Source of the DNA: an uncultured Lachnospiraceae bacterium | GTDB lineage: Bacteria > Bacillota > Clostridia > Lachnospirales > Lachnospiraceae | Reading direction: 5' to 3' | Length of the DNA stretch: 63,032 nt | NCBI GenBank assembly: GCA_964422365.1 | Contig: CAYRAV010000013.1 | Coordinates: 1 to 63,032, forward strand | Part shown: positions 3,823 through 21,322 of the stretch, piece by piece | Numbering within the stretch: position 1 is the stretch's first letter | Layout of the letters: each line of letters starts with the position of its first letter | Notes under the pieces: generated by a model | Told to the model about the DNA's origin: nothing | Databases searched by the model: none | What the model saw: the letters and a program-made list of their open reading frames with translations, nothing else | Made by a program: the position numbers and the translations under genes

Positions 3823-4655
3823 TTAGACAATTTTTTTAAGGTTATTTTCCCGAAATTGTACTGGTGTTTGATAATTCAACGAAGAATGAATACGATGATG
3901 ATTATACCAGTTTACATAATCCCATAGCTTTAATTTCAATTCTTCCAAGGTATGAAATCTCTCATTCCATATAAATTCCGTCTTTATTATTTTGAATGTG
4001 GCCTCTGCTGCAGCATTATCATACGGACACCCTTTGCGGCTCAGTAAACGTTCCATATCAAATGCCTCCAGCAATTCATCTATTGTCTGATTTTTGAATT
4101 CATTTCCACGGTCCGTATGAAAAATATGGATATCTGATAACTTCCCTTTTATACTCATAAATGCCTGTTTTACAAGTCCTGCCGTTTTATGTTCCCCTGC
4201 ACTGTAGCCTATAATCTCTCTGTTAAAAAGGTCAACAGGTACACATATGTAATTCCATTGTTTCCCAACTCTTACATATGTCAGAACACTTACCACTACA
4301 TTACGATAAGATTGTTCGTTAAACTGGCGGTTAGAACATTTTCCGCCTTAGATTCATTGCATCGGTCTTTCTGTGGTTTAAATTGTGCAGTTGTGTAATT
4401 CGATACCAGTCCCTCCTGTTTCATAATTCGTCCAATTCTACGTCTGGACACCTGTTTTCCTTTCTTTTGCAACTCTTTTTTTATTTTGCGTGTACCGTAA
4501 TTGTTGCGGCTCGCTTTGAAGATGCCTGTGATATCAGATACCAAAGAGGATTCATCAGGTTTCTTTTTGGCTTCATAATAATAAGTGCTTCTGTTTACCT
4601 GCAGGACGCGGCACATTGCTGATACAGAGTATTTGTGGGCATTTGCCTTAATCAC
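3823..4655 (-). pseudogene. IS3-family transposase OrfB (integrase core) split by an internal frameshift near 4296-4330
   Basis: Two consecutive minus-strand ORFs (4296..4655 and 3823..4296) together encode an rve/DDE integrase (HTDRGNEF...YDNAAAE). The break lies inside orfB, not at the programmed orfA/orfB frameshift site. Confidence 0.6.
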
Positions 4656-4657
4656 AT

Positions 4658-4954
4658 TTACTTTCGTCCTAAGATCAGCGCCGCTTGTTTTAAAATGTCA
4701 TTTTCCATTTTGAGCTGCTGATTTTCTCTGCGAAGTTTTATGAGTTCTTCCTGTTCAGGAGTCCGGTTGTCTTTTTCATGAAAAGAACCGGAATTTGCCG
4801 CCTGCTTCACCCATTTATCAAAGACGGATGTGGAAATATCATATTCCCTGCAAATATCGCACCTGCGTTTACCAGAATGATATAAATCTACCAGTTGTTT
4901 TTTGAATTCATCTGTATATTTACGAGGTTTTCTTCTTTGTTTTTGTTCGGTCAT
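4658..4954 (-). CDS. IS3-family transposase OrfA (HTH)
   Basis: 98 aa with a leucine-zipper/HTH region typical of IS3 OrfA (KRRKPRKYTDEFKKQLVDLYHSG). Confidence 0.8.
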   Translation of the reverse strand: MTEQKQRRKPRKYTDEFKKQLVDLYHSGKRRCDICREYDISTSVFDKWVKQAANSGSFHEKDNRTPEQEELIKLRRENQQLKMENDILKQAALILGRK

Positions 4955-12012: not shown

Positions 12013-12603
12013 ATGACTGAGAAAGAGAAAATGTTAAAACAGCTTATGTATGATGCAAATTATGATGAAGAATTAATAAATGATAGAGCAAACTGCAAGG
12101 ATATGTGTTACGACTATAATTTGCTGCGTCCTTCTGAAACTGAAAAGCAGACAGAAGTAATGAAGAAATTATTAGGAAAAACACATGGAGATTTCTGTAT
12201 TGTAGCTCCTTTTTGGTGTGATTATGGTTATAACATTGAAATTGGTGAGAATTTTTTTGCCAATCATAATCTGGTGATTTTAGATGGAGCAAAAGTTACC
12301 TTTGGAAACAATGTATTTGTGGCACCAAATTGTGGATTTCATACAGCTGGGCATCCAATTGATTATGAACGCAGAAATCAGGGATTGGAATATGCATATC
12401 CGATTACAGTTGGTGATAATGTTTGGATTGGTGCGGGGGTGCAGGTTATGCCAGGAGTTACAATAGGAAACAATGTAGTCATTGGCGGTGGAAGTGTTGT
12501 GGTAAAAGATATTCCAGACAATTCGGTAGCTGTTGGTAATCCATGTAAGGTAGTCAGAGTAATTACCGAAGAAGATAAGAAAAGAGATTATGATCGTGAA
12601 TGA
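12013..12603 (+). CDS. Maltose/galactoside O-acetyltransferase (hexapeptide-repeat transferase)
   Basis: Left-handed beta-helix hexapeptide repeats (VWIGAGVQVMPGVTIGNNVVIGGGSVV) and a Maa-like N-terminus. Confidence 0.85.
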   Translation: MTEKEKMLKQLMYDANYDEELINDRANCKDMCYDYNLLRPSETEKQTEVMKKLLGKTHGDFCIVAPFWCDYGYNIEIGENFFANHNLVILDGAKVTFGNNVFVAPNCGFHTAGHPIDYERRNQGLEYAYPITVGDNVWIGAGVQVMPGVTIGNNVVIGGGSVVVKDIPDNSVAVGNPCKVVRVITEEDKKRDYDRE

Positions 12604-12638
12604 AGTTTAAACAATGGATGATGCAGAAGTGGAGATGA

Positions 12639-14009
12639 ATGAAATTGAGTGGCAATGAGATCACAGCAAAGAAACGAAAACAGATGGATATGCTGCATGG
12701 AAAGTTAATGGATAAGCTGTTATTGTTTGCTTTGCCGTTGGCAGCAAGTAGTGTTTTACAGCAATTATTTAATTCTGTGGATGTAGCAGTAGTGGGACAT
12801 TATGCTGAAAGTCAGGCACAGGCTGCGGTAGGATGCAATGGTTCTGTTATCAATTTATTGTTGAATCTTTTTGTAGGAATATCAGTAGGTGCCAATGTAG
12901 TAATTGCTGGCTATATTGGACAGGAGCGAAAAGATAAAGTCAAAGAAACTGTTCACACTGCAATGGTGGTTGCCTTGTTCAGTGGAATTATGCTGTTGTT
13001 TTTGGGAATTTTGATTGCAAGGCCGATTCTCACATGGATGGATACACCAGAAGATGTGATAGAGCAGGCAGTATTATATCTTCAGATTTATTTTGTTGGA
13101 ATGCCTTTTATTATGATTTATAACTTTGGCGCTGCCATTCTTAGAAGTATTGGAGATACCAAAAGACCACTTTACTGTCTGATTATATCAGGAATGGTGA
13201 ATGCAGGATTAAATATGTTTCTTGTTATTGTATTTCACTTAGGAGTAGCAGGAGTTGGCATTGCTACAGTAATATCAAATATCATCAGTGCATCAATAGT
13301 GCTGTATTTTCTGACCCATGAACAGGGAATCATACATCTTTCATTAAAAGAACTTAGTGTCAAAAAAACGGAACTGATAAAGATTTTAAAAATTGGGGTA
13401 CCAGCAGGATTGCAGTCTATGGTATTTTCTGCTGCCAATGTTTTTATTCAAAAGGCATTAAATGGATATGGTTCGGATGCAGTAGCCGGTTCTGCAGTAG
13501 CCCTTAATTTTGAATACTATTCTTATTTTGTGGTGTCAGCATTTGGACAAGCAACCGTCACCTTTACCAGCCAGAACTTTGGTGCAAAACAATATGACCG
13601 CTGTAAAAAGATTTTTAAGCAGACATCATTTATGAGTGTCTTTGTCATAGGGTGTATGAGCATGATTTTCTTATTAGGACAAAGTTTTTTTATCAAATTA
13701 TTTACATCAAAACCAAAAGTGGCAGAATATGCATCTATCCGTATGGTATATCTGCTTACACTATATATTTTGCTTCCGATATACGAAATTGGCGGTGCTG
13801 CCCTTAGGGGAATTGGTTATTCAATGACTCCAGCTATATTGACTATATTTGGAACCTGTATTTTCCGCCTGACATGGGTTTATACAATATGCAAAAGGTA
13901 TACAGGTTTTAAGACTTTATTGTTGGTTTATCCTATTTCATGGGCAATTACGGGTGCAGCTGTGTTAACTGCTTATTTTATGATACGGCGAAAGGTGTTT
14001 GCAAAATGA
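12639..14009 (+). CDS. MATE family efflux transporter
   Basis: 12-TM composition with MATE N-terminal signature (LLFALPLAASSVLQQLFNSVD). The true start may be the ATG at 12687. Confidence 0.85.
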   Translation: MKLSGNEITAKKRKQMDMLHGKLMDKLLLFALPLAASSVLQQLFNSVDVAVVGHYAESQAQAAVGCNGSVINLLLNLFVGISVGANVVIAGYIGQERKDKVKETVHTAMVVALFSGIMLLFLGILIARPILTWMDTPEDVIEQAVLYLQIYFVGMPFIMIYNFGAAILRSIGDTKRPLYCLIISGMVNAGLNMFLVIVFHLGVAGVGIATVISNIISASIVLYFLTHEQGIIHLSLKELSVKKTELIKILKIGVPAGLQSMVFSAANVFIQKALNGYGSDAVAGSAVALNFEYYSYFVVSAFGQATVTFTSQNFGAKQYDRCKKIFKQTSFMSVFVIGCMSMIFLLGQSFFIKLFTSKPKVAEYASIRMVYLLTLYILLPIYEIGGAALRGIGYSMTPAILTIFGTCIFRLTWVYTICKRYTGFKTLLLVYPISWAITGAAVLTAYFMIRRKVFAK

Positions 14010-14039
14010 GAATTGTTTCATGTGAATTGAGAGGATATT

Positions 14040-14807
14040 ATGAATTTACAAATGGATCAGAGAATTGCTGAACAGTATAATAGCAATTCACAAAAAATAC
14101 GTGTTATTACAGAGCATTGGGTGCATAAGAATTTGTTTTGCCCATATTGTGGAAATCAGTATATTAGTCATTTTGAAAATAATAGACCAGTTGCAGACTT
14201 TTATTGCCCTCATTGTTTGGAAGAATATGAACTAAAAAGTAAAAATGGGCCTATTACTGCTAAAATAACTGCTGGTGCATATGCAACAATGATAGAGCGG
14301 ATTGAATCAATTAATCATCCTAATTTTTTCTTTATGCATTATAATAAGTCAGATTTAAGCGTGAAAAATTTTATTATGGTTCCAAAACACTTTTTCTCTA
14401 CAGAAATTATTGAGAAAAGAAAGCCCTTAGCAGATACTGCAAGAAGAGCAGGCTGGGTTGGATGCAATATTGTATTGAAGCAAATTCCAGAAGAAGGGAG
14501 AATCTATATTATTAAAAATGGGATAGAACAACCAATAAAGGATGTTATAGTGAAGGTAAATAAGACAAACTTCATTAGGGATTATAAATTGGATGCCAGA
14601 GGTTGGATTTTAGATGTCCTGAATTGTGTTAATAAAATAGATTCAAGAGATTTTACATTGAAACAGATATATGAATTTGAACAAATGCTTGCAGAAAAGC
14701 ATCCTAAAAATTATCATGTTAAAGATAAGATAAGGCAGCAGCTTCAGATTCTTAGGGATAAAGGAATTATTGAATTTAATGGAAGAGGATGCTATAAGAA
14801 GGTATAG
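14040..14807 (+). CDS. DpnI-type methyl-directed (Type IIM) restriction endonuclease homologue
   Basis: 255 aa. PD-(D/E)xK motif with D53, E64 and K66 (PVADFYCPHCLEEYELK), at the same positions as the DpnI catalytic residues. C-terminal winged-helix region (KIRQQLQILRDKGIIEF). Family identification is from memory. Confidence 0.75.
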   Translation: MNLQMDQRIAEQYNSNSQKIRVITEHWVHKNLFCPYCGNQYISHFENNRPVADFYCPHCLEEYELKSKNGPITAKITAGAYATMIERIESINHPNFFFMHYNKSDLSVKNFIMVPKHFFSTEIIEKRKPLADTARRAGWVGCNIVLKQIPEEGRIYIIKNGIEQPIKDVIVKVNKTNFIRDYKLDARGWILDVLNCVNKIDSRDFTLKQIYEFEQMLAEKHPKNYHVKDKIRQQLQILRDKGIIEFNGRGCYKKV

Positions 14808-14885
14808 TAGTTCTATGTGTTACAATAATTTTTAGTTATAAAAAACAATTCTTGTTGAACCATCAGAAAGTAAAAGGAGAAAAGG

Positions 14886-16208
14886 ATGTATACATTTCTA
14901 AATGTCATATTTGATATAAAGCAAAAATTTTCAACTGTTCTTCCAATTGTTTTGGATGTATTACAGGAAAAGAATTGGGAGAATGAAAGAGTTTTGTTTC
15001 ATTTTGCGGATGTTAATGATGCGGAAACAGAAAGGCGGACAGTACATGCAAAGTTATGTAAGGCATTTCCCCAGATGGTTCCTTATTGGAAAAGCGGATT
15101 AGAGGAACATAAGAGAGTTCATCTAAATTGTGATTGTTATCCGCATCAGTTTAGCTATTTTTCAAATTTTCCAAGTAGAGTGGGTGGAGAATGTGTTTTA
15201 AAAGCCGTGGATAAACAAATTAATAATAACTTGATATTGCAAATTAGCAAGAAGATTCCTAACCCCTATTCTTTGTATGGGGCAGTGATTGTCTTAGATG
15301 GAATTAACTGGAATACAGACAATGACCAGTTGCCAGTTTGGGATTGGCGTTATGATTTGAATGAATATGATACAAAAATAACAGATAATCAGGAACAGGA
15401 ATATGGCATGAACATGTCTTATTATCCAGCATGTTCTGAGTATCAAAATAATAGTATCATTTTATCAAAAGTTTTTGATACAAAACCAGAACTGGAACTT
15501 CGGATCAAATTAACACCATCACATAATCAGATAGAAGTTGAACGAATTGTCAGTGTATTTGCCCAACATTTTGGGACACCCGAAAAGAAATATGTAACTA
15601 TAGTTCCCTCAATTAAAGAGAAAAAAGAGTACTGCCTAAATCAAAATAAGATGAAAGAAATTTATAAAAAATGGAGAACGCAGATGGAAGAAGAATTAAA
15701 TTGTGTTGTACTTCAGATGAAGAATGATTTGGAGGGAATGAGTGAAACACAGAGAAGGAAAAACGTCAGCAGGAAAACAATACAAAAACATTTCCTTGAG
15801 AAAAATGGATTGAAACGTCATAAGATACATCGATGGGATGATCATGGATGGTATAAGATTCTGCCTCATAATTATTGGATGTATGTAGAGATGTATATAC
15901 AACCCAAGCCTCAGGATACAGGATATAAGAATGAAAGCTGGATTGAAGTGGTGTGTTATGGAATGAATTTTGACTTACATGACAGGATAGTAATAAATAA
16001 TTTTGCTAGTCAATTTGGAGATGTTGCTGCAATCATAACATTCGAAAAATTTCAGCGTTTTTTCAATAAGTTTGAGAAAGAGGTTATACCAAAACTGGCA
16101 GAGATTTTTGGGGATACACAATCAGAGTTTTATCAGGAATCATACGAAAGGACATTTCATTTTCATAAATATATGATTCATCTGGAAAAACACAATAATG
16201 TTCTTTGA
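14886..16208 (+). CDS. Hypothetical 440-aa protein with no recognisable domain, adjacent to the DpnI homologue
   Basis: Long ORF with RBS AAAGGAGAAAAGG, 78 bp downstream of the DpnI-like gene on the same strand. Confidence 0.65.
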   Translation: MYTFLNVIFDIKQKFSTVLPIVLDVLQEKNWENERVLFHFADVNDAETERRTVHAKLCKAFPQMVPYWKSGLEEHKRVHLNCDCYPHQFSYFSNFPSRVGGECVLKAVDKQINNNLILQISKKIPNPYSLYGAVIVLDGINWNTDNDQLPVWDWRYDLNEYDTKITDNQEQEYGMNMSYYPACSEYQNNSIILSKVFDTKPELELRIKLTPSHNQIEVERIVSVFAQHFGTPEKKYVTIVPSIKEKKEYCLNQNKMKEIYKKWRTQMEEELNCVVLQMKNDLEGMSETQRRKNVSRKTIQKHFLEKNGLKRHKIHRWDDHGWYKILPHNYWMYVEMYIQPKPQDTGYKNESWIEVVCYGMNFDLHDRIVINNFASQFGDVAAIITFEKFQRFFNKFEKEVIPKLAEIFGDTQSEFYQESYERTFHFHKYMIHLEKHNNVL

Positions 16209-16257
16209 ACGAAATAAGGGAGCATATTGATGTAAAAAAATTGATGGAGGAAAACAA

Positions 16258-16725
16258 ATGAAACTTAAAAATATGTTAGTTGTTGTCAATGACATAGAAA
16301 AATCAAAAGCTTTTTATAAGGAGCTATTTGGTTTAGAGGTAGTTTTAGATTTTGGTGAAAATGTCATTTTAACAGAAGGGCTTGTGTTACAGGAAAAACA
16401 ACTTTGGAAGAAATTTATTGAAAAGGATGTTCGCATTGGAGGAAATGATGCAGAATTGTATTTTGAGGAAAATGATATAGATGCATTTTTGAGAAAACTG
16501 GAGAAAAGCAGTTTTTCTGTAGAATACTTGAATAGATGTATGGAACATGACTGGGGGCAGCGTGTGATACGGATTTATGATTTGGATCAACATATCATTG
16601 AAATTGGTGAGACAATGGAGAGTGTAGCATGCAGGTTTTTAAAGATGGGAATGACAATAGAGCAGGTTGCAGAGAAAACACAGCTGCCATGTGATTTTAT
16701 ATTGTCATTAGAGGCTCACAAATAA
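16258..16725 (+). CDS. VOC (glyoxalase/bleomycin-resistance) family protein
   Basis: Small protein with a beta-alpha-beta-beta-beta module composition and a VVVNDIEKSKAFY start typical of the family. Confidence 0.7.
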   Translation: MKLKNMLVVVNDIEKSKAFYKELFGLEVVLDFGENVILTEGLVLQEKQLWKKFIEKDVRIGGNDAELYFEENDIDAFLRKLEKSSFSVEYLNRCMEHDWGQRVIRIYDLDQHIIEIGETMESVACRFLKMGMTIEQVAEKTQLPCDFILSLEAHK

Positions 16726-16828
16726 GAGTTTGTATTTTGATTAGTTTTTGGTTTTGCAATCAGATAAAAGGTATGATTTTGTGAGAGCAGATTGAAAGAT
16801 AAAATATTAATTTGAGGAGTGAAGGAAA

Positions 16829-17614
16829 ATGTATTTTGAAAAATTATGGCAGTTATTTGCAGGACTTTCGGAAATAACAGCAATTGCGCTTGGAGGTTCA
16901 AGAGCAGGAATGGAATATGATGAAAAATCGGATTATGATCTGTATTTATACTGCACAAGGTTACCAGATGAAAATGTTAGAAGGGCAATTCTTGAAGAAT
17001 CATGCAGTTACATAGAAATTGGAAATGCCTTTTGGGAGTTAGAGGATGACTGTACATTAAAGGATGGAATAGATATAGACATTCTGTATCGCAGTATGGA
17101 TAGCTTTAGAGATGGATTGATTGCTGTAGTAGAACAGGGAACAGCTTATAATGGGTATACAACCTGTATGTGGCATAATCTTTTGAACTGTAAGATTTTA
17201 TATGATAAAAATGGCGAATTGCAAGGTCTGAAGGACAGATTTGATGTTACCTATCCGGCACAGCTTAAGAAAAATATTATAAACCGTAATATGAAGCTTT
17301 TACATGGATATCTGCCTTCTTACGATGCACAGATTAGGAAGGCTGCTTCTCGTAATGATGTAGTGGCAGTGAACCATAGAGTAGCAGCATTTATGGAGTC
17401 CTATTTTGACATTATTTTTGCTTTGAACGAAATGACACATCCGGGAGAAAAAAGAATGGTGGAATTGGCATTGAAGAATGCAAGGAATTTGCCTTCTGGT
17501 TTTGAAAATCATATTGATAAACTATATCATTACTTGTTTATAAAATCAGATGAGGCGATGATAATTTTGGCAGAAATGATTGAAAATCTTGAAGCTGTCA
17601 TATCAATTGAGTGA
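16829..17614 (+). CDS. Nucleotidyltransferase-fold protein (Pol-beta superfamily; ANT(6)/Lnu-like N-terminal motif)
   Basis: GGSRAG-x9-SDYDLYLY (GS...DxD) nucleotidyltransferase signature. Confidence 0.65.
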   Translation: MYFEKLWQLFAGLSEITAIALGGSRAGMEYDEKSDYDLYLYCTRLPDENVRRAILEESCSYIEIGNAFWELEDDCTLKDGIDIDILYRSMDSFRDGLIAVVEQGTAYNGYTTCMWHNLLNCKILYDKNGELQGLKDRFDVTYPAQLKKNIINRNMKLLHGYLPSYDAQIRKAASRNDVVAVNHRVAAFMESYFDIIFALNEMTHPGEKRMVELALKNARNLPSGFENHIDKLYHYLFIKSDEAMIILAEMIENLEAVISIE

Positions 17615-17879
17615 AGAAAATCTGATATTCCACTCGACAATACTTCTCAAAAAAGAAACCTAAGATGGCATAAAGAAATTAGGTGTGCCTAAGGAGAAAA
17701 TTTAAATCTGAAAATATTCAAAAGTCAGGAATATTGTTGGTTCATGAATGGAATGAGTAAATGGAAAATACAAAAAATTACTTTTTATGCAATAAAGAAA
17801 GTGGAAGAAGAAAATGGATATAAAATATAGATAGTGACCTTAAGCTGCTTAAATTATAATTTTAGAAAGAAGTGTAAAC

Positions 17880-18563
17880 ATGCAATATACCATTTTGATT
17901 GTAGAAGATGAAACAGACATCAGTAAACTGTTGACTAAAATTTTGGAAACAGCAGGCTATAAAACAAATCAGGCATTTTCAGGAACAGAAGCAAAGCTCC
18001 TGTTGGAAAAAGAAATACCAGATTTAATTCTATTGGACCTTATGCTTCCAGGAATGGCAGGAGATAAACTGCTGTATGAAATCAGGGAAAACATGAACTG
18101 CAATGTTCCGATATTAGTTCTCTCAGCAAAGAGCTCATTAAATGATAAAGTAGCACTGCTTAATATGGGAGCTGACGATTATATTACAAAGCCCTTTGAA
18201 CCGGAGGAGGTGCTTGCAAGAATTCAGGCAGCTCTTAGACATATGGGCAAGACAGTGAATAACCGTCAAGCATTGTCATATAAAAGACTGAAGCTCTACC
18301 CAGAATCAAGAAAGGTAATCGTAAATGATACAGAGCTTGTATTAACGGCACATGAATATGAGATTCTCTATCTCCTTATGCAGACTCCTGAAAAAGTATA
18401 TTCAAGGGAAAATCTATATGAATTGGTATGGAAGGGTGGATATTATGGTGAAAATAACACGGTCAATGTTCATGTAAGCAATTTAAGGAAAAAGATAAAA
18501 GAAGCTGATCCAACAGAAGAATATATTCAGACTGTATATGGAATTGGATTTAAGCTTCCATGA
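17880..18563 (+). CDS. OmpR-family response regulator
   Basis: Receiver domain (D54 context LLDLMLPGM) plus a winged-helix output domain. Confidence 0.9.
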   Translation: MQYTILIVEDETDISKLLTKILETAGYKTNQAFSGTEAKLLLEKEIPDLILLDLMLPGMAGDKLLYEIRENMNCNVPILVLSAKSSLNDKVALLNMGADDYITKPFEPEEVLARIQAALRHMGKTVNNRQALSYKRLKLYPESRKVIVNDTELVLTAHEYEILYLLMQTPEKVYSRENLYELVWKGGYYGENNTVNVHVSNLRKKIKEADPTEEYIQTVYGIGFKLP

Positions 18564-18661
18564 AATCTTTATGACTTCTTTAAAAGTTTTTTATGACTTA
18601 TTAAAAATGAAAAGGATATAATATGTTTGTCAATAAAAAATTCTTAGAAAGGAAGAAAAAG

Positions 18662-19588
18662 ATGAATGAATATGTCATAGAAACAAAACAGGCCACAAAG
18701 GTTTATGGTCCGGTCCTTGCATTAGACCATGTGGATATCCATGTAAAAAGAGGAAGCATATACGGACTGATTGGAGATAATGGTGCGGGAAAATCCACTC
18801 TTTTAAAATTGCTGGCAGGGCATAGTTTTGCTACATCAGGAGAAATATGCCTGTTTGGCAGATGCAAAGAAAAGGAGTTGGAACGAAGCCGCAGACAGAT
18901 TGGTGCGAGCATTGAACAGCCGGGATTTTTCCCGAATATGACTGTGGAAAAGATGTTGGAATATTATCGTATCCAAAGAGGAATCCCAGAAAAGGGAAAG
19001 GTAGAAGAAATTCTAAAGCTGACGGGTATCTGGGATAAACGAAAAAGCAGATGCAAAGACCTGTCTCTTGGACAAAAACAGAGATTAGGGCTTTCGATTG
19101 CTATGATTGGAGAACCCCAGCTTTTAATATTAGATGAACCGATTAATGGATTAGATCCCAGCGGCATGATGGAACTTAGAAAACTGTTTCGTCGTTTGAA
19201 TGAAGAGAAAAATATCACGATCTTACTTTCTAGTCATATTCTATCAGAATTACAGCAGACAGCCAGTACATTTGGATTTTTAAGCAAGGGACGGCTGATG
19301 GAAGAAATCTCTGCAAAAAAATTATATGAAAAGTGTACAGATTATTTCAATATTACGGTTTCAGAACCAGAGGAATATATGGCACTGTTAGAAGGTAATT
19401 TTCCGGAAGAAGTCTATAAGGTACTTCCGGATAAGAGTATTCAGATTACCAATCCCAAAAGGGAGTCAGAAGTTTATAGCCGCCTTGCAGCAGAACATAA
19501 TATTTATATCAGGGGATTGGAGAAAAAACATGCTTCGTTAGAAGATTATTACATGAAATTGAAAACAGGAGGTCAGGGAATATGTTAA
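18662..19588 (+). CDS. ABC transporter ATP-binding protein
   Basis: Walker A GDNGAGKST, signature LSLGQKQRL, Walker B LLILDEP. Confidence 0.85.
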   Translation: MNEYVIETKQATKVYGPVLALDHVDIHVKRGSIYGLIGDNGAGKSTLLKLLAGHSFATSGEICLFGRCKEKELERSRRQIGASIEQPGFFPNMTVEKMLEYYRIQRGIPEKGKVEEILKLTGIWDKRKSRCKDLSLGQKQRLGLSIAMIGEPQLLILDEPINGLDPSGMMELRKLFRRLNEEKNITILLSSHILSELQQTASTFGFLSKGRLMEEISAKKLYEKCTDYFNITVSEPEEYMALLEGNFPEEVYKVLPDKSIQITNPKRESEVYSRLAAEHNIYIRGLEKKHASLEDYYMKLKTGGQGIC

Positions 19589-20355
19589 ACTATATAAAAA
19601 GCGAATTTTACAGGGTTTTTAATAACATGTGGGTTTATGCCACGGCGGGAATCCTTGCAATGCTCATTCTGTTTGCAAACTTGGTCTTATATTGGTTTCA
19701 AAAGTATACCATCAACTTTCCCTATGGAACAACCTCATATTCCTTTTCCAATATTGTTGCAGAGCCAATGTTATACTGTTACATAGCATTCGTCATTGTT
19801 GCAATTCTCTATGAAGGGGATAAACGTTACGGCAGTCAGAAAAACAGCATTGCCTATGGAATTCCCCGAACAAAAATTTTTGCAGGCAAGTGTATCGTCA
19901 GCTTGTTTACCGCCCTTGCAATCTTATTTGCTGTCATGACCGTTTATATTAGCAGTGCAATGTTATTATTAGAACACAAGGGGCCTGTAGATGTAAAAGA
20001 TATGCTGATGGAAGTTCCGGCAATATCTTTGATTGCAGTTTCGGCCGTAATTTTAAGTGTCATTGTTTTGGAATATTTTGATAAGAGCATTACAGGCATC
20101 ATTATATGTTTTTTTATATTCTCTGTAATACCAAAGGTTCTCTTTTATATGGGAATGAAGATTGATTTTCTTATGAATATTGCCATGTGGCTGCCACATA
20201 ATTTTTTTACTACAGAAATGAATGTTAATATGAGTCAATGCATAACCATATGGGATACGGCAGCAGGAATGGCAAAATGCCTGATTTCCGGTGCGGCAGG
20301 AATTGTTATCTTCAGTATTGCAGGGGTAACACTATTGAGAAAAAAAGATATTTAA
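19582..20355 (+). CDS. ABC-2 type permease (lantibiotic-immunity/Ecs-like)
   Basis: 6-TM hydrophobic protein translationally coupled to the ATPase. Confidence 0.65.
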   Translation: MLNYIKSEFYRVFNNMWVYATAGILAMLILFANLVLYWFQKYTINFPYGTTSYSFSNIVAEPMLYCYIAFVIVAILYEGDKRYGSQKNSIAYGIPRTKIFAGKCIVSLFTALAILFAVMTVYISSAMLLLEHKGPVDVKDMLMEVPAISLIAVSAVILSVIVLEYFDKSITGIIICFFIFSVIPKVLFYMGMKIDFLMNIAMWLPHNFFTTEMNVNMSQCITIWDTAAGMAKCLISGAAGIVIFSIAGVTLLRKKDI

Positions 20356-20377
20356 AAATTGCTTTGGAGGAAGGAAA

Positions 20378-21322
20378 ATGATGTATTGGTTTCTCGTTTC
20401 TGCCATTATAATAGGTGGATATTTTGCACTTCGTTACTTTTTGATAAAGCATGCACTTAGAGAAGTAAACGAGGAACTGCAGGATATATATAAAGACATG
20501 GCACAAAATCAGATTCTTCATTTGCCAATGCCTGACCGGGATTTGGAACGGCTTATGCTTTCTATGAATGCCGCTTTGGAAGAAGTGCGTAAGGAACGCC
20601 AAAGCTATGAGAAACGTGAGAAGGAATTTCAAGAACAGATAGAAAATATCAGCCATGATTTAAGGACACCTTTGACAGTCATCCTGGGTTATATAAGATT
20701 AATGAAGAAATCTAAAAGGGAAAGGGATTTAGGTCAAGATCAGATAGAGTCACTGGAGATCATAGAAAGAAAAGCAAGATCTATGGAAAAATTGGTAACA
20801 CAGTTTTATGCATATTCCCGTCTGAGGGCTCAAGATTGTCAGTTAATCATACATGAGGTGGATGTTTGCAGGATTTTAAGGGAAAGTATCATTGATAATT
20901 ATCAGATTCTGGAAAAGGCACAATTGAAAGTTGACAGCAGGCTGCCGGAGCACCCTGTAATGGTTCAGGCAGAAGCCAGTGCATTAGAGCGGATATTTTC
21001 TAATCTGTTTCAAAATGCTGGACGATATGCAGATAGCTTTCTGGATATTCAGATAAAAGAAAGCGGTGAAAAGACACTTATTACTTTAGTAAATGATACA
21101 GATAAGATTTCCGAAGAAGAAATTTCCCATTTGTTTGACCGCTTTTATGTGCAGGATGATGCCAGGAATCAAGATGGCACAGGATTGGGGCTGACAGTTG
21201 CAAGGTCTTTGGCAGAAGCTATGGATGGTACATTAACGGCTGAGATTGTAAAGGAGCAGCAAAGAAAGAATGGGGTAAAAAATGTTATAATTTGTTTTAA
21301 CTTGTCTTTAAAAAATGTTTAA
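20378..21322 (+). CDS. Sensor histidine kinase (intramembrane-sensing type)
   Basis: Short TM N-terminus. HisKA H-box ISHDLRTPLTVILGY. HATPase_c N/G boxes. Confidence 0.85.
   Translation: MMYWFLVSAIIIGGYFALRYFLIKHALREVNEELQDIYKDMAQNQILHLPMPDRDLERLMLSMNAALEEVRKERQSYEKREKEFQEQIENISHDLRTPLTVILGYIRLMKKSKRERDLGQDQIESLEIIERKARSMEKLVTQFYAYSRLRAQDCQLIIHEVDVCRILRESIIDNYQILEKAQLKVDSRLPEHPVMVQAEASALERIFSNLFQNAGRYADSFLDIQIKESGEKTLITLVNDTDKISEEEISHLFDRFYVQDDARNQDGTGLGLTVARSLAEAMDGTLTAEIVKEQQRKNGVKNVIICFNLSLKNV

Follow-up and report, generated by a model that had tools for sequence, protein, structure and literature searches.

A DpnI-family restriction endonuclease gene and its probably coincidental neighbor, a rare orphan gene encoding a 440-residue protein

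The window analyzed here is the whole 63,032-nucleotide (63-kb) stretch of DNA. Its forward strand carries two adjacent open reading frames that were assigned in a preliminary description to a DpnI-like endonuclease and a protein of 440 residues. Both were re-found as ATG ORFs on the + strand, with the coordinates and the 78-bp gap that had been claimed. The features of the locus are as follows.

12639..14009, + strand: MATE efflux transporter, 456 aa (Pfam MatE, 2.4e-50)
14040..14807, + strand: DpnI-family Type IIM (Gm6ATC-dependent) restriction endonuclease by sequence, 255 aa, ATG start (Pfam, PADLOC, PDB)
14040..14579, + strand: N-terminal PD-(D/E)XK catalytic domain, aa 1–180 (PF06044, residue mapping onto R.DpnI)
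14592..14801, + strand: C-terminal winged-helix m6A-sensing domain, aa 185–254 (PF17726, residue mapping)
14808..14885, + strand: 78-bp spacer with the AAAGGAG ribosome-binding site of the 440-aa gene (sequence, terminator scan, alignment with L010 and L013)
14886..16208, + strand: 440-aa protein, ATG start, from an unnamed orphan family that is rare and of Clostridia type
15309..15311, + strand: codon of Trp142 (TGG) in the 440-aa gene, a TGA stop in the conspecific contig L009
16258..16725, + strand: VOC/glyoxalase-bleomycin-resistance-like protein, 155 aa (Pfam Glyoxalase_2, 2.9e-34)

Pfam matches also support the flanking genes as originally named, including, besides the VOC gene, a downstream gene for a Pol-beta/DUF4037 nucleotidyltransferase-fold protein. 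The DpnI and 440-aa ORFs are each preceded by a good Shine-Dalgarno sequence, and no terminator-like site is predicted in the spacer at 14808–14885; thus, the two genes may well be co-transcribed. Their co-orientation carries little information, since nearly all genes in the window are co-oriented and separated by short gaps. A search of the window for the boundaries of a mobile element revealed no tRNA, no Rfam match, and only repeats at chance level. When the MATE gene was used as an anchor for an orthologous locus in relatives, no synteny was found at ≤71% identity.

By sequence, the ORF at 14040–14807 is an ordinary, textbook Type IIM endonuclease of the DpnI family. Residues 1–180 align with positions 1–181 of the 183 in the Pfam DpnI profile (PF06044; 1.7e-81, 272.7 bits, cut-off 26.7). 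Residues 185–254 cover positions 1–70 of the 70 in DpnI_C (PF17726; E 1.6e-33, 115.1 bits, cut-off 23), in agreement with the winged-helix-like tail noticed earlier. The PADLOC mREase_II profile is matched over positions 1–254 of 256 (6.9e-108, 357.9 bits), while the match to the R.DpnI structures (PDB 4esj/4kyw; 2.4e-90) extends end to end with 52% identity.

The roles of the PD-(D/E)XK catalytic residues and the structural zinc site have been described for R.DpnI (PMC3424567), as have the GATC readout and methyl pocket of its catalytic domain and residues K229/R231 of its winged helix (PMC4117772). All four catalytic residues (E25, D53, E64 and K66) are identical in the window protein, with the same numbering; the peptide PVADFYCPHCLEEYELK places D53, E64 and K66 at the exact catalytic positions of R.DpnI, as expected of the triad first proposed for this ORF. 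Both CXXC motifs of the Cys4 zinc site (C34/C37 and C56/C59) are kept. Residues N48, R126, L129, R135, W138 and G140 of R.DpnI correspond to identical residues at positions 48, 127, 130, 136, 139 and 141 of the window protein, where N48 and R127 are the GATC readers and L130, R136, W139 and G141 line the methyl pocket, R136 also being grouped with the readers. In the winged helix, K230/R232 are the equivalents of K229/R231. The family assignment therefore holds in profile, structure-sequence and residue-level tests, and we infer that the enzyme would cut GATC sites only when methylated. Conceptually, this homologue is nothing new, as the family is abundant in gut Firmicutes (>7,800 clusters). 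The mechanism of DpnI has already been solved structurally.

No methyltransferase gene adjoins the DpnI gene, whose neighbors are the MATE, 440-aa and VOC genes, in line with the earlier reading of the locus. Motif IV of N6/N4-methyltransferases, (D/N/S)PP(Y/F/W), is absent from all window ORFs of at least 100 aa, a weak test that covers 63 kb only. The closest non-conspecific relatives of the window DpnI, encoded on gut metagenome contigs (L010–L015), show ∼79% identity to it and are identical at all functional residues. Their surroundings (GmrSD, HEPN, Mob_Pre, rve) place them in defence islands or in mobilisable elements. Where the window has a MATE transporter upstream of DpnI, these relatives have a 306-aa beta-class PF01555 methyltransferase that ends 4 bp upstream of DpnI. 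DpnI is translationally coupled in these relatives to the beta-class methyltransferase, which has an atypical DHPW motif. The pairing is a paradox, given that the enzyme depends on methylation, and may be worth examining separately.

The 440-aa protein was said to have no recognizable domain, and this was borne out across Pfam, NCBIfam, PADLOC, PHROGs and PDB sequences, where neither the single sequence nor the 47-member profiles gave a match. No Pfam match was obtained for any of the 47 family members (0/47), no family among the PADLOC-DB defence HMMs was hit at E≤0.1, and a profile search of a 5.8-billion-protein database with the family added no names or domains. The family forms 7 clusters, compared to >7,800 for the DpnI family. 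The modeled protein appears to be soluble, with alpha+beta sandwich domains linked by a 40-residue helix. This very rare and confidently modeled family is without relatives in sequence or structure. In the 47-member alignment, the conserved residues are mostly structural, no catalytic motif is present, and W142 is kept in 96% of the sequences. The protein is most likely a non-enzymatic, soluble protein of a binding or immunity type.

The neighbors of the family loci are heterogeneous, and carriage of the family by phages or plasmids was not found. A conserved small upstream partner was considered and rejected, the candidate ORFs (149–165 aa in L001, L002 and L008) being mutually non-homologous. 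Other conserved neighbors across the family loci are shared only among closely related Clostridium loci, and none is universal.

Comparison with the relatives of DpnI defines the position of the 440-aa gene. DNA homology to L010 covers DpnI (14034–14782) and the VOC gene (16247–16688; 75% identical in DNA and 74% in protein to the VOC gene downstream of DpnI in L010) and nothing in between; it ends at the DpnI stop codon and is back at the VOC ribosome-binding site. Thus, the 440-aa gene occupies a variable slot. The 5′ edge of the 78-bp spacer is where homology to both L010 and L013 ends, and the VOC gene, where homology to L010 restarts, forms the 3′ edge of the slot. The place 3′ of DpnI is taken in the relatives by an opposite-strand HTH gene or by HipA_C and HIRAN genes, whereas it is held by the 440-aa gene in the window.

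Within the species, gene order at the locus is fixed across all contigs, and DpnI is present at the site in 8/8 of them, with no alternative cassette. Changes in the 440-aa gene are all non-synonymous. The strain represented by L009 has a premature stop at W142 of the 440-aa gene and an intact DpnI. The W142-stop products (P0183 and P0184) are found in 3 contigs each and are known from metagenome assemblies only. The idea that conspecific variation clusters in the segment containing DpnI and the 440-aa gene was unconvincing, as the 12 sites at which L009 differs from the window are spread over 14249–17790, intergenic DNA included.

The preliminary description proposed that the 440-aa protein could be an accessory or partner in a methylation-dependent defence locus, a link that repeated pairing of the two genes elsewhere could support. 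No such pairing was seen: DpnI is encoded within 10 kb of none of the 19 other loci of the 440-aa family (∼10 independent contexts), and the family is present at none of the 6 non-conspecific DpnI loci. The 440-aa gene would thus be a chance neighbor, since its rare family adjoins DpnI nowhere else. Together with the homology break in L010, which falls exactly at gene boundaries, and the W142 stop alongside an intact DpnI, these counts leave the proposed partnership unsupported. The preliminary description had named, as grounds for refutation, a common housekeeping family lacking co-occurrence with restriction genes. Such co-occurrence is essentially absent, but the family is a rare one and not a common housekeeping family. 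We are highly confident in the combined reading that the first ORF is a DpnI-family endonuclease and that its adjacency to the 440-aa gene is coincidental.

In the preferred reading, the window DpnI would be a solitary Type IIM endonuclease, probably a monomer by homology to R.DpnI. Its zinc-stabilised PD-(D/E)XK domain and its winged-helix domain would each read fully methylated Gm6ATC, with a blunt cut made within the site. A host without Dam methylation could thereby destroy incoming phage or plasmid DNA replicated in Dam+ bacteria. No cognate methyltransferase would be needed in such a host, and this lineage is presumed to be Dam-negative. The 440-aa ORF would be an unrelated, dispensable, lineage-specific gene in the variable slot, and any co-transcription with DpnI would be incidental.

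If the two genes are unrelated, the 440-aa protein could be an orphan immunity protein that binds and neutralizes a polymorphic (contact-dependent or secreted) toxin. We regard this as possible but rather unlikely. Distant family members (Clostridium mobile, Desnuesiella, Clostridium MAGs) are encoded within extended runs of small ORFs that all point the same way, among them genes for immunity-type proteins of the Tdi1_C/GAD-like and SMI1_KNR4 (SUKH) kinds. The family gene of L023 follows a SUKH gene at a distance of 13 bp. The missing catalytic motif and the exclusively non-synonymous changes within the species point in the same direction. However, the arrays represent two contexts (L019/L020/L025/L026 and L023), which include neither the window copy nor the closer homologues. 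The genes beside these closer homologues include those for a beta-galactosidase, a HAD hydrolase, a solute-binding protein and an Hsp70/J-protein pair, and no toxin gene lies beside the window copy or most of these homologues. A length of 440 aa is also large for an immunity protein. Profile-profile comparison showed no kinship to the neighboring SUKH or Tdi1-like proteins, and homology to them was rejected (hhalign probabilities of 0.1% and 8% over 9 columns).

A second alternative leaves the molecular function of DpnI as it is and addresses its biological role; it can stand beside the preferred explanation. The window DpnI may represent one of the alternating states of a DpnI/DpnII-like GATC cassette system, or a Neisseria-type "Dam-replacing" gene, that shapes gene flow between Dam+ and Dam− bacteria and is not primarily anti-phage. 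GATC is strongly depleted in the window (59 observed, 159 expected, ratio 0.37) and equally so at the conspecific locus L027, a pattern consistent with long-standing exposure of the lineage to enzymes that cleave unmethylated GATC, but GC-only palindromes are also depleted in the window. Pfam calls the family "Dam-replacing", and homologues of 44% identity are found on Neisseria chromosomes. The pneumococcal DpnI, DpnII and DpnIII cassettes are syntenic alternatives (PMC4471560); in contrast, the site holds DpnI in every conspecific contig, and no synteny in relatives reveals another occupant. We consider this role improbable.

Less probable still is the view that the slot 3′ of DpnI is a cargo slot for defence- or toxin-type genes, taken up in the relatives by a HipA-like kinase with HIRAN or by an HTH regulator, and that the 440-aa protein is the first member seen of a defence or immunity family that is new and has a novel structure. 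In this one lineage, the protein could then cooperate with DpnI or work in parallel to it. The slot might attract defence genes, because the slots of the relatives hold HipA_C/HIRAN and one 440-aa homologue adjoins an Uma2 gene (PD-(D/E)XK fold, matching the PADLOC candidate PDC-S03).

We find it very hard to credit the 440-aa protein as a DpnI accessory specific to this lineage (a regulator, specificity modulator, antitoxin-like inhibitor or second effector) in a novel two-gene methylation-dependent defence module: the terminator-free 78-bp gap between co-oriented genes, the toxin- or defence-type cargo in the relatives' slots, and the second gene that the pneumococcal dpnI locus likewise has (dpnD, described as a "protein of unknown function"; PMC4471560) are consistent with it, but co-orientation is uninformative here, no PADLOC match was obtained for the protein, R.DpnI acts alone as a monomer (PMC3424567), and the comparative counts, the homology break and the W142 stop all argue against it. 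As gene order is fixed in the conspecific contigs, the comparative data by themselves would still allow a functional link restricted to this lineage. The combination of DpnI with a partner is in all likelihood an accident of gene order and does not merit further pursuit as a candidate for a new defence system. The useful outcome of this analysis is thus a negative one.

Among known systems, the SUKH/SMI1-KNR4, Tdi1 and CdiI immunity proteins have no detectable sequence relationship to the 440-aa protein, which is much larger and multi-domain, has no adjacent toxin gene, and is encoded in the window outside the immunity-gene arrays. The Neisseria Dam-replacing protein (drp, NmeBII-type) belongs to the same Pfam family as the window DpnI, with 44% identity over the full length. 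Neisseria drp-type homologues of DpnI occupy the dam locus, whereas no comparable dam-replacement context is visible at the window DpnI. R.DpnI of Streptococcus pneumoniae has 254 aa, compared to 255 aa for the window enzyme, which is known here from its sequence and belongs to another locus in another host, probably a member of the gut Clostridia or a Lachnospiraceae-like organism. The second gene at the window locus, which encodes 440 aa, is not dpnD-like in size, the dpnD product being much smaller. The two endonucleases share the same two-domain architecture, and both are encoded with no adjacent methyltransferase.

The two ORFs and their 78-bp gap agree exactly in coordinates, strand and lengths with the preliminary description, and its flanking MATE, VOC and nucleotidyltransferase-fold genes are confirmed by Pfam matches. 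The features of the locus are as follows.

3823-4954, − strand: IS3-type transposase, split into several ORFs (rve, HTH_21 and HTH_Tnp_1 as annotated on the conspecific contig L027:1-915)
12639-14009: MATE transporter, upstream of DpnI
14040-14807, + strand: DpnI ORF, 255 aa (ORF call)
Between the two ORFs: 78-bp spacer with a strong ribosome-binding site (AAAGGAG) for the 440-aa gene
14886-16208, + strand: ORF of the 440-aa protein (ORF call)
16258-16725: VOC/glyoxalase protein, downstream of the 440-aa gene
16829-17614: Pol-beta/DUF4037 nucleotidyltransferase-fold protein, downstream of VOC

A terminator scan detected no terminator-like hairpin in the 78-bp spacer. Nearly all genes of the 63-kb window share the + strand and are closely spaced, and the GC skew is strongly positive throughout; the co-orientation of DpnI and the 440-aa gene is thus uninformative on its own. 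GC content is 31.2% for DpnI and 33.2% for the 440-aa gene, both near the window mean (33.7%). No tRNAs, Rfam families or convincing flanking repeats were found, and a MATE-anchored search for an orthologous locus revealed no synteny in relatives at 71% identity or below. At the transposase, ∼9 kb upstream of DpnI, the GC skew is locally reversed. The region around DpnI (12013-21322) resembles a xenobiotic/antibiotic tolerance patchwork, with a Mac/hexapeptide acetyltransferase, MATE efflux, VOC (bleomycin-resistance-like) and Pol-beta/DUF4037 nucleotidyltransferase genes, as well as a module of response regulator, ABC ATPase, permease and histidine kinase.

The 255-aa protein matches the Pfam families DpnI (PF06044; residues 1-180, E = 1.7e-81) and DpnI_C (PF17726; residues 185-254, 1.6e-33), the PADLOC model for Type II methyl-directed restriction enzymes (along its full length, 6.9e-108), and the crystallised S. 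pneumoniae R.DpnI (PDB 4esj/4kyw; 52% identity, 2.4e-90). Residue roles follow the two structural papers (PMC3424567, PMC4117772), with positions transferred to the window protein. The catalytic residues E25, D53, E64 and K66 and the zinc ligands C34, C37, C56 and C59 are identical, as are, in R.DpnI numbering, the GATC readers (N48, R126 and R135), the methyl-pocket residues (L129, W138 and G140) and the winged-helix residues K229 and R231. The sole difference at the positions checked is D78A, where R.DpnI uses the main-chain carbonyl. By every criterion testable from sequence, this protein is a bona fide DpnI, as had been proposed. By analogy with R.DpnI, this nuclease would act as a monomer, each of its two domains independently sensing fully methylated Gm6ATC, and would cut within that site.

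As previously noted, no methyltransferase gene adjoins DpnI, and motif IV of N6/N4-methyltransferases is absent from all window ORFs of at least 100 aa, although this is a weak test. GATC is depleted in the window (59 observed versus 159 expected, ratio 0.37) and in the conspecific contig L027 (19 versus 57). Ratios for most other A/T-containing 4-bp palindromes in the window are 0.83-0.95 (CTAG, 0.58); GC-only palindromes have low ratios too, on small counts. The depletion is compatible with restriction having been directed at GATC over a long time, and suggests that a lineage now carrying a methyl-GATC-dependent enzyme has long been under selection against GATC. It has no bearing on whether DpnI and the 440-aa gene are paired.

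A different arrangement is seen in five metagenome loci with close DpnI relatives (L010-L014), where a 306-aa beta-class methyltransferase (PF01555; L010:5076-5996, L013:5076-5996) ends 4 bp upstream of a DpnI with all functional residues intact. Its motif I is FAGSG and its motif IV an atypical DHPW, rather than (D/S)PP(Y/F); in the PDB it is closest to CcrM, DpnA and an N4-cytosine methyltransferase, at only ∼1e-7. A methyltransferase beside a methyl-dependent nuclease is paradoxical.

The 440-aa protein is a genuine orphan, in line with the earlier view that it has no recognisable domain. Searches of Pfam, NCBIfam, PADLOC, PHROGs and PDB sequences gave no match. When 5.8 billion proteins were searched by word index, just 6 other clusters emerged, at 36-41% identity; among 1.84 billion representatives, an exhaustive HMMER profile search gave 59 proteins, 17 of them below 1e-30. 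None of the 47 full-length members has a Pfam match, a PDB search with the 47-member profile returned nothing, a final profile search added no new names or domains, and no copies were found in phage and plasmid collections. The protein is soluble, judging from a maximum 19-residue Kyte-Doolittle average of 1.28, and the family-wide conserved residues (F38, P62, Y67, P125, D138, W142, G230 and F362) are mostly structural. The AlphaFold model, based on a 47-sequence alignment, is confident (pLDDT 86.7, pTM 0.88) and predicts alpha+beta sandwich domains joined by a ∼40-residue helix (243-283), with no significant Foldseek match in the PDB. This very rare family, with its confidently predicted, unmatched fold, is mildly interesting in itself.

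The preliminary description proposed that the 440-aa protein could be a partner or accessory of DpnI. Four independent lines of evidence (the 440-aa loci, the DpnI loci, the slot between the genes, and dispensability) indicate that the two are not a pair. Outside the window, the 440-aa family was sampled at 19 loci, representing ∼10 independent contexts, from Lachnospiraceae and Hungatella MAGs, Hungatella effluvii, Clostridium mobile, Desnuesiella massiliensis, Anaerocolumna jejuensis, a Paenibacillaceae MAG and others; tblastn found DpnI within 10 kb of none of them. The neighbours are mixed: beta-galactosidase, HAD hydrolase, solute-binding protein, pseudouridine synthase, Cache sensor, an Hsp70 and J-domain pair, ABC exporters, Macro, GNAT and DUF2716. 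VOC homologues lie <4 kb away at two loci (L019 and L025). At another (L001), the homologue is followed after 198 bp by a Uma2-family gene of PD-(D/E)XK fold (L001:11533-12042), which matches PDC-S03, a candidate defence protein in PADLOC (4.5e-33). This is the only nuclease-adjacent context besides the window, and 2 of ∼11 are too few to mean anything.

The DpnI family comprises >7,800 clusters. In its closest non-conspecific relatives (∼79% identity), DpnI is followed by an opposite-strand HTH gene, or by HipA_C and HIRAN, and the 440-aa family is absent from these loci. DNA homology between the window and L010 covers DpnI (14034-14782, 77%) and the VOC gene (16247-16688, 75%; protein, 74%), with nothing between them: similarity stops at the DpnI stop codon and restarts at the VOC ribosome-binding site. 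This places the 440-aa gene in a variable slot flanked by two conserved genes.

Within the species, the order MATE-DpnI-440-VOC is kept in all 8 conspecific contigs. In one of them (L009:1283-1285 region), TGA replaces TGG of the invariant Trp142 (window 15309-15311), truncating two thirds of the 440-aa protein, while the DpnI ORF keeps its full 255 aa, altered by one missense and one synonymous substitution. Each of the truncated products is found on 3 contigs. W142stop beside an intact DpnI is evidence that the 440-aa gene is dispensable. The other changes are V294I and I299M in L009, and I259F, common to L009, L027-L029 and L032. All four changes in the 440-aa gene, W142stop included, are non-synonymous or nonsense, with none synonymous; these small numbers are compatible with weak constraint. 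The flanking genes are identical in DNA apart from 3 intergenic changes at 17631-17790.

Other roles for the 440-aa protein were considered. At L006 and L007, a homologue follows, after 16 bp, an Hsp70 gene and the gene of a 1066-aa protein that weakly matches a J-domain, in an operon-like arrangement (L006:1835-8132, L007:562-6859); neither upstream protein has a PADLOC match. This adjacency could hint at a chaperone-linked role. The DpnI relative at L013:1-12768 is on an apparent mobilisable element, with a Mob_Pre relaxase, TnpV and an IS (rve) upstream and a HipA_C kinase, HIRAN, HicB antitoxin and Cas3-like helicase downstream, an arrangement showing that in other lineages DpnI moves together with defence and toxin-antitoxin cargo. 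An improbable reading is that the slot downstream of DpnI collects defence or toxin cargo, with the 440-aa protein as a new protein of defence or immunity. Most closer homologues of the 440-aa protein lie outside the immunity-type (SUKH, Tdi1) arrays in which some distant members sit. Kinship with the neighbouring SUKH or Tdi1 proteins was rejected, as profile-profile comparison revealed no relationship.

The natural comparison is with the pneumococcal dpnC/dpnD module (PMC4471560). Recurrent co-occurrence, the defining feature of such a module, was tested here and is absent from the loci sampled, and an analogous module of DpnI plus partner is thus not supported. R.DpnI works alone (PMC3424567), and the DpnI described here is an ordinary addition to a well-understood family.
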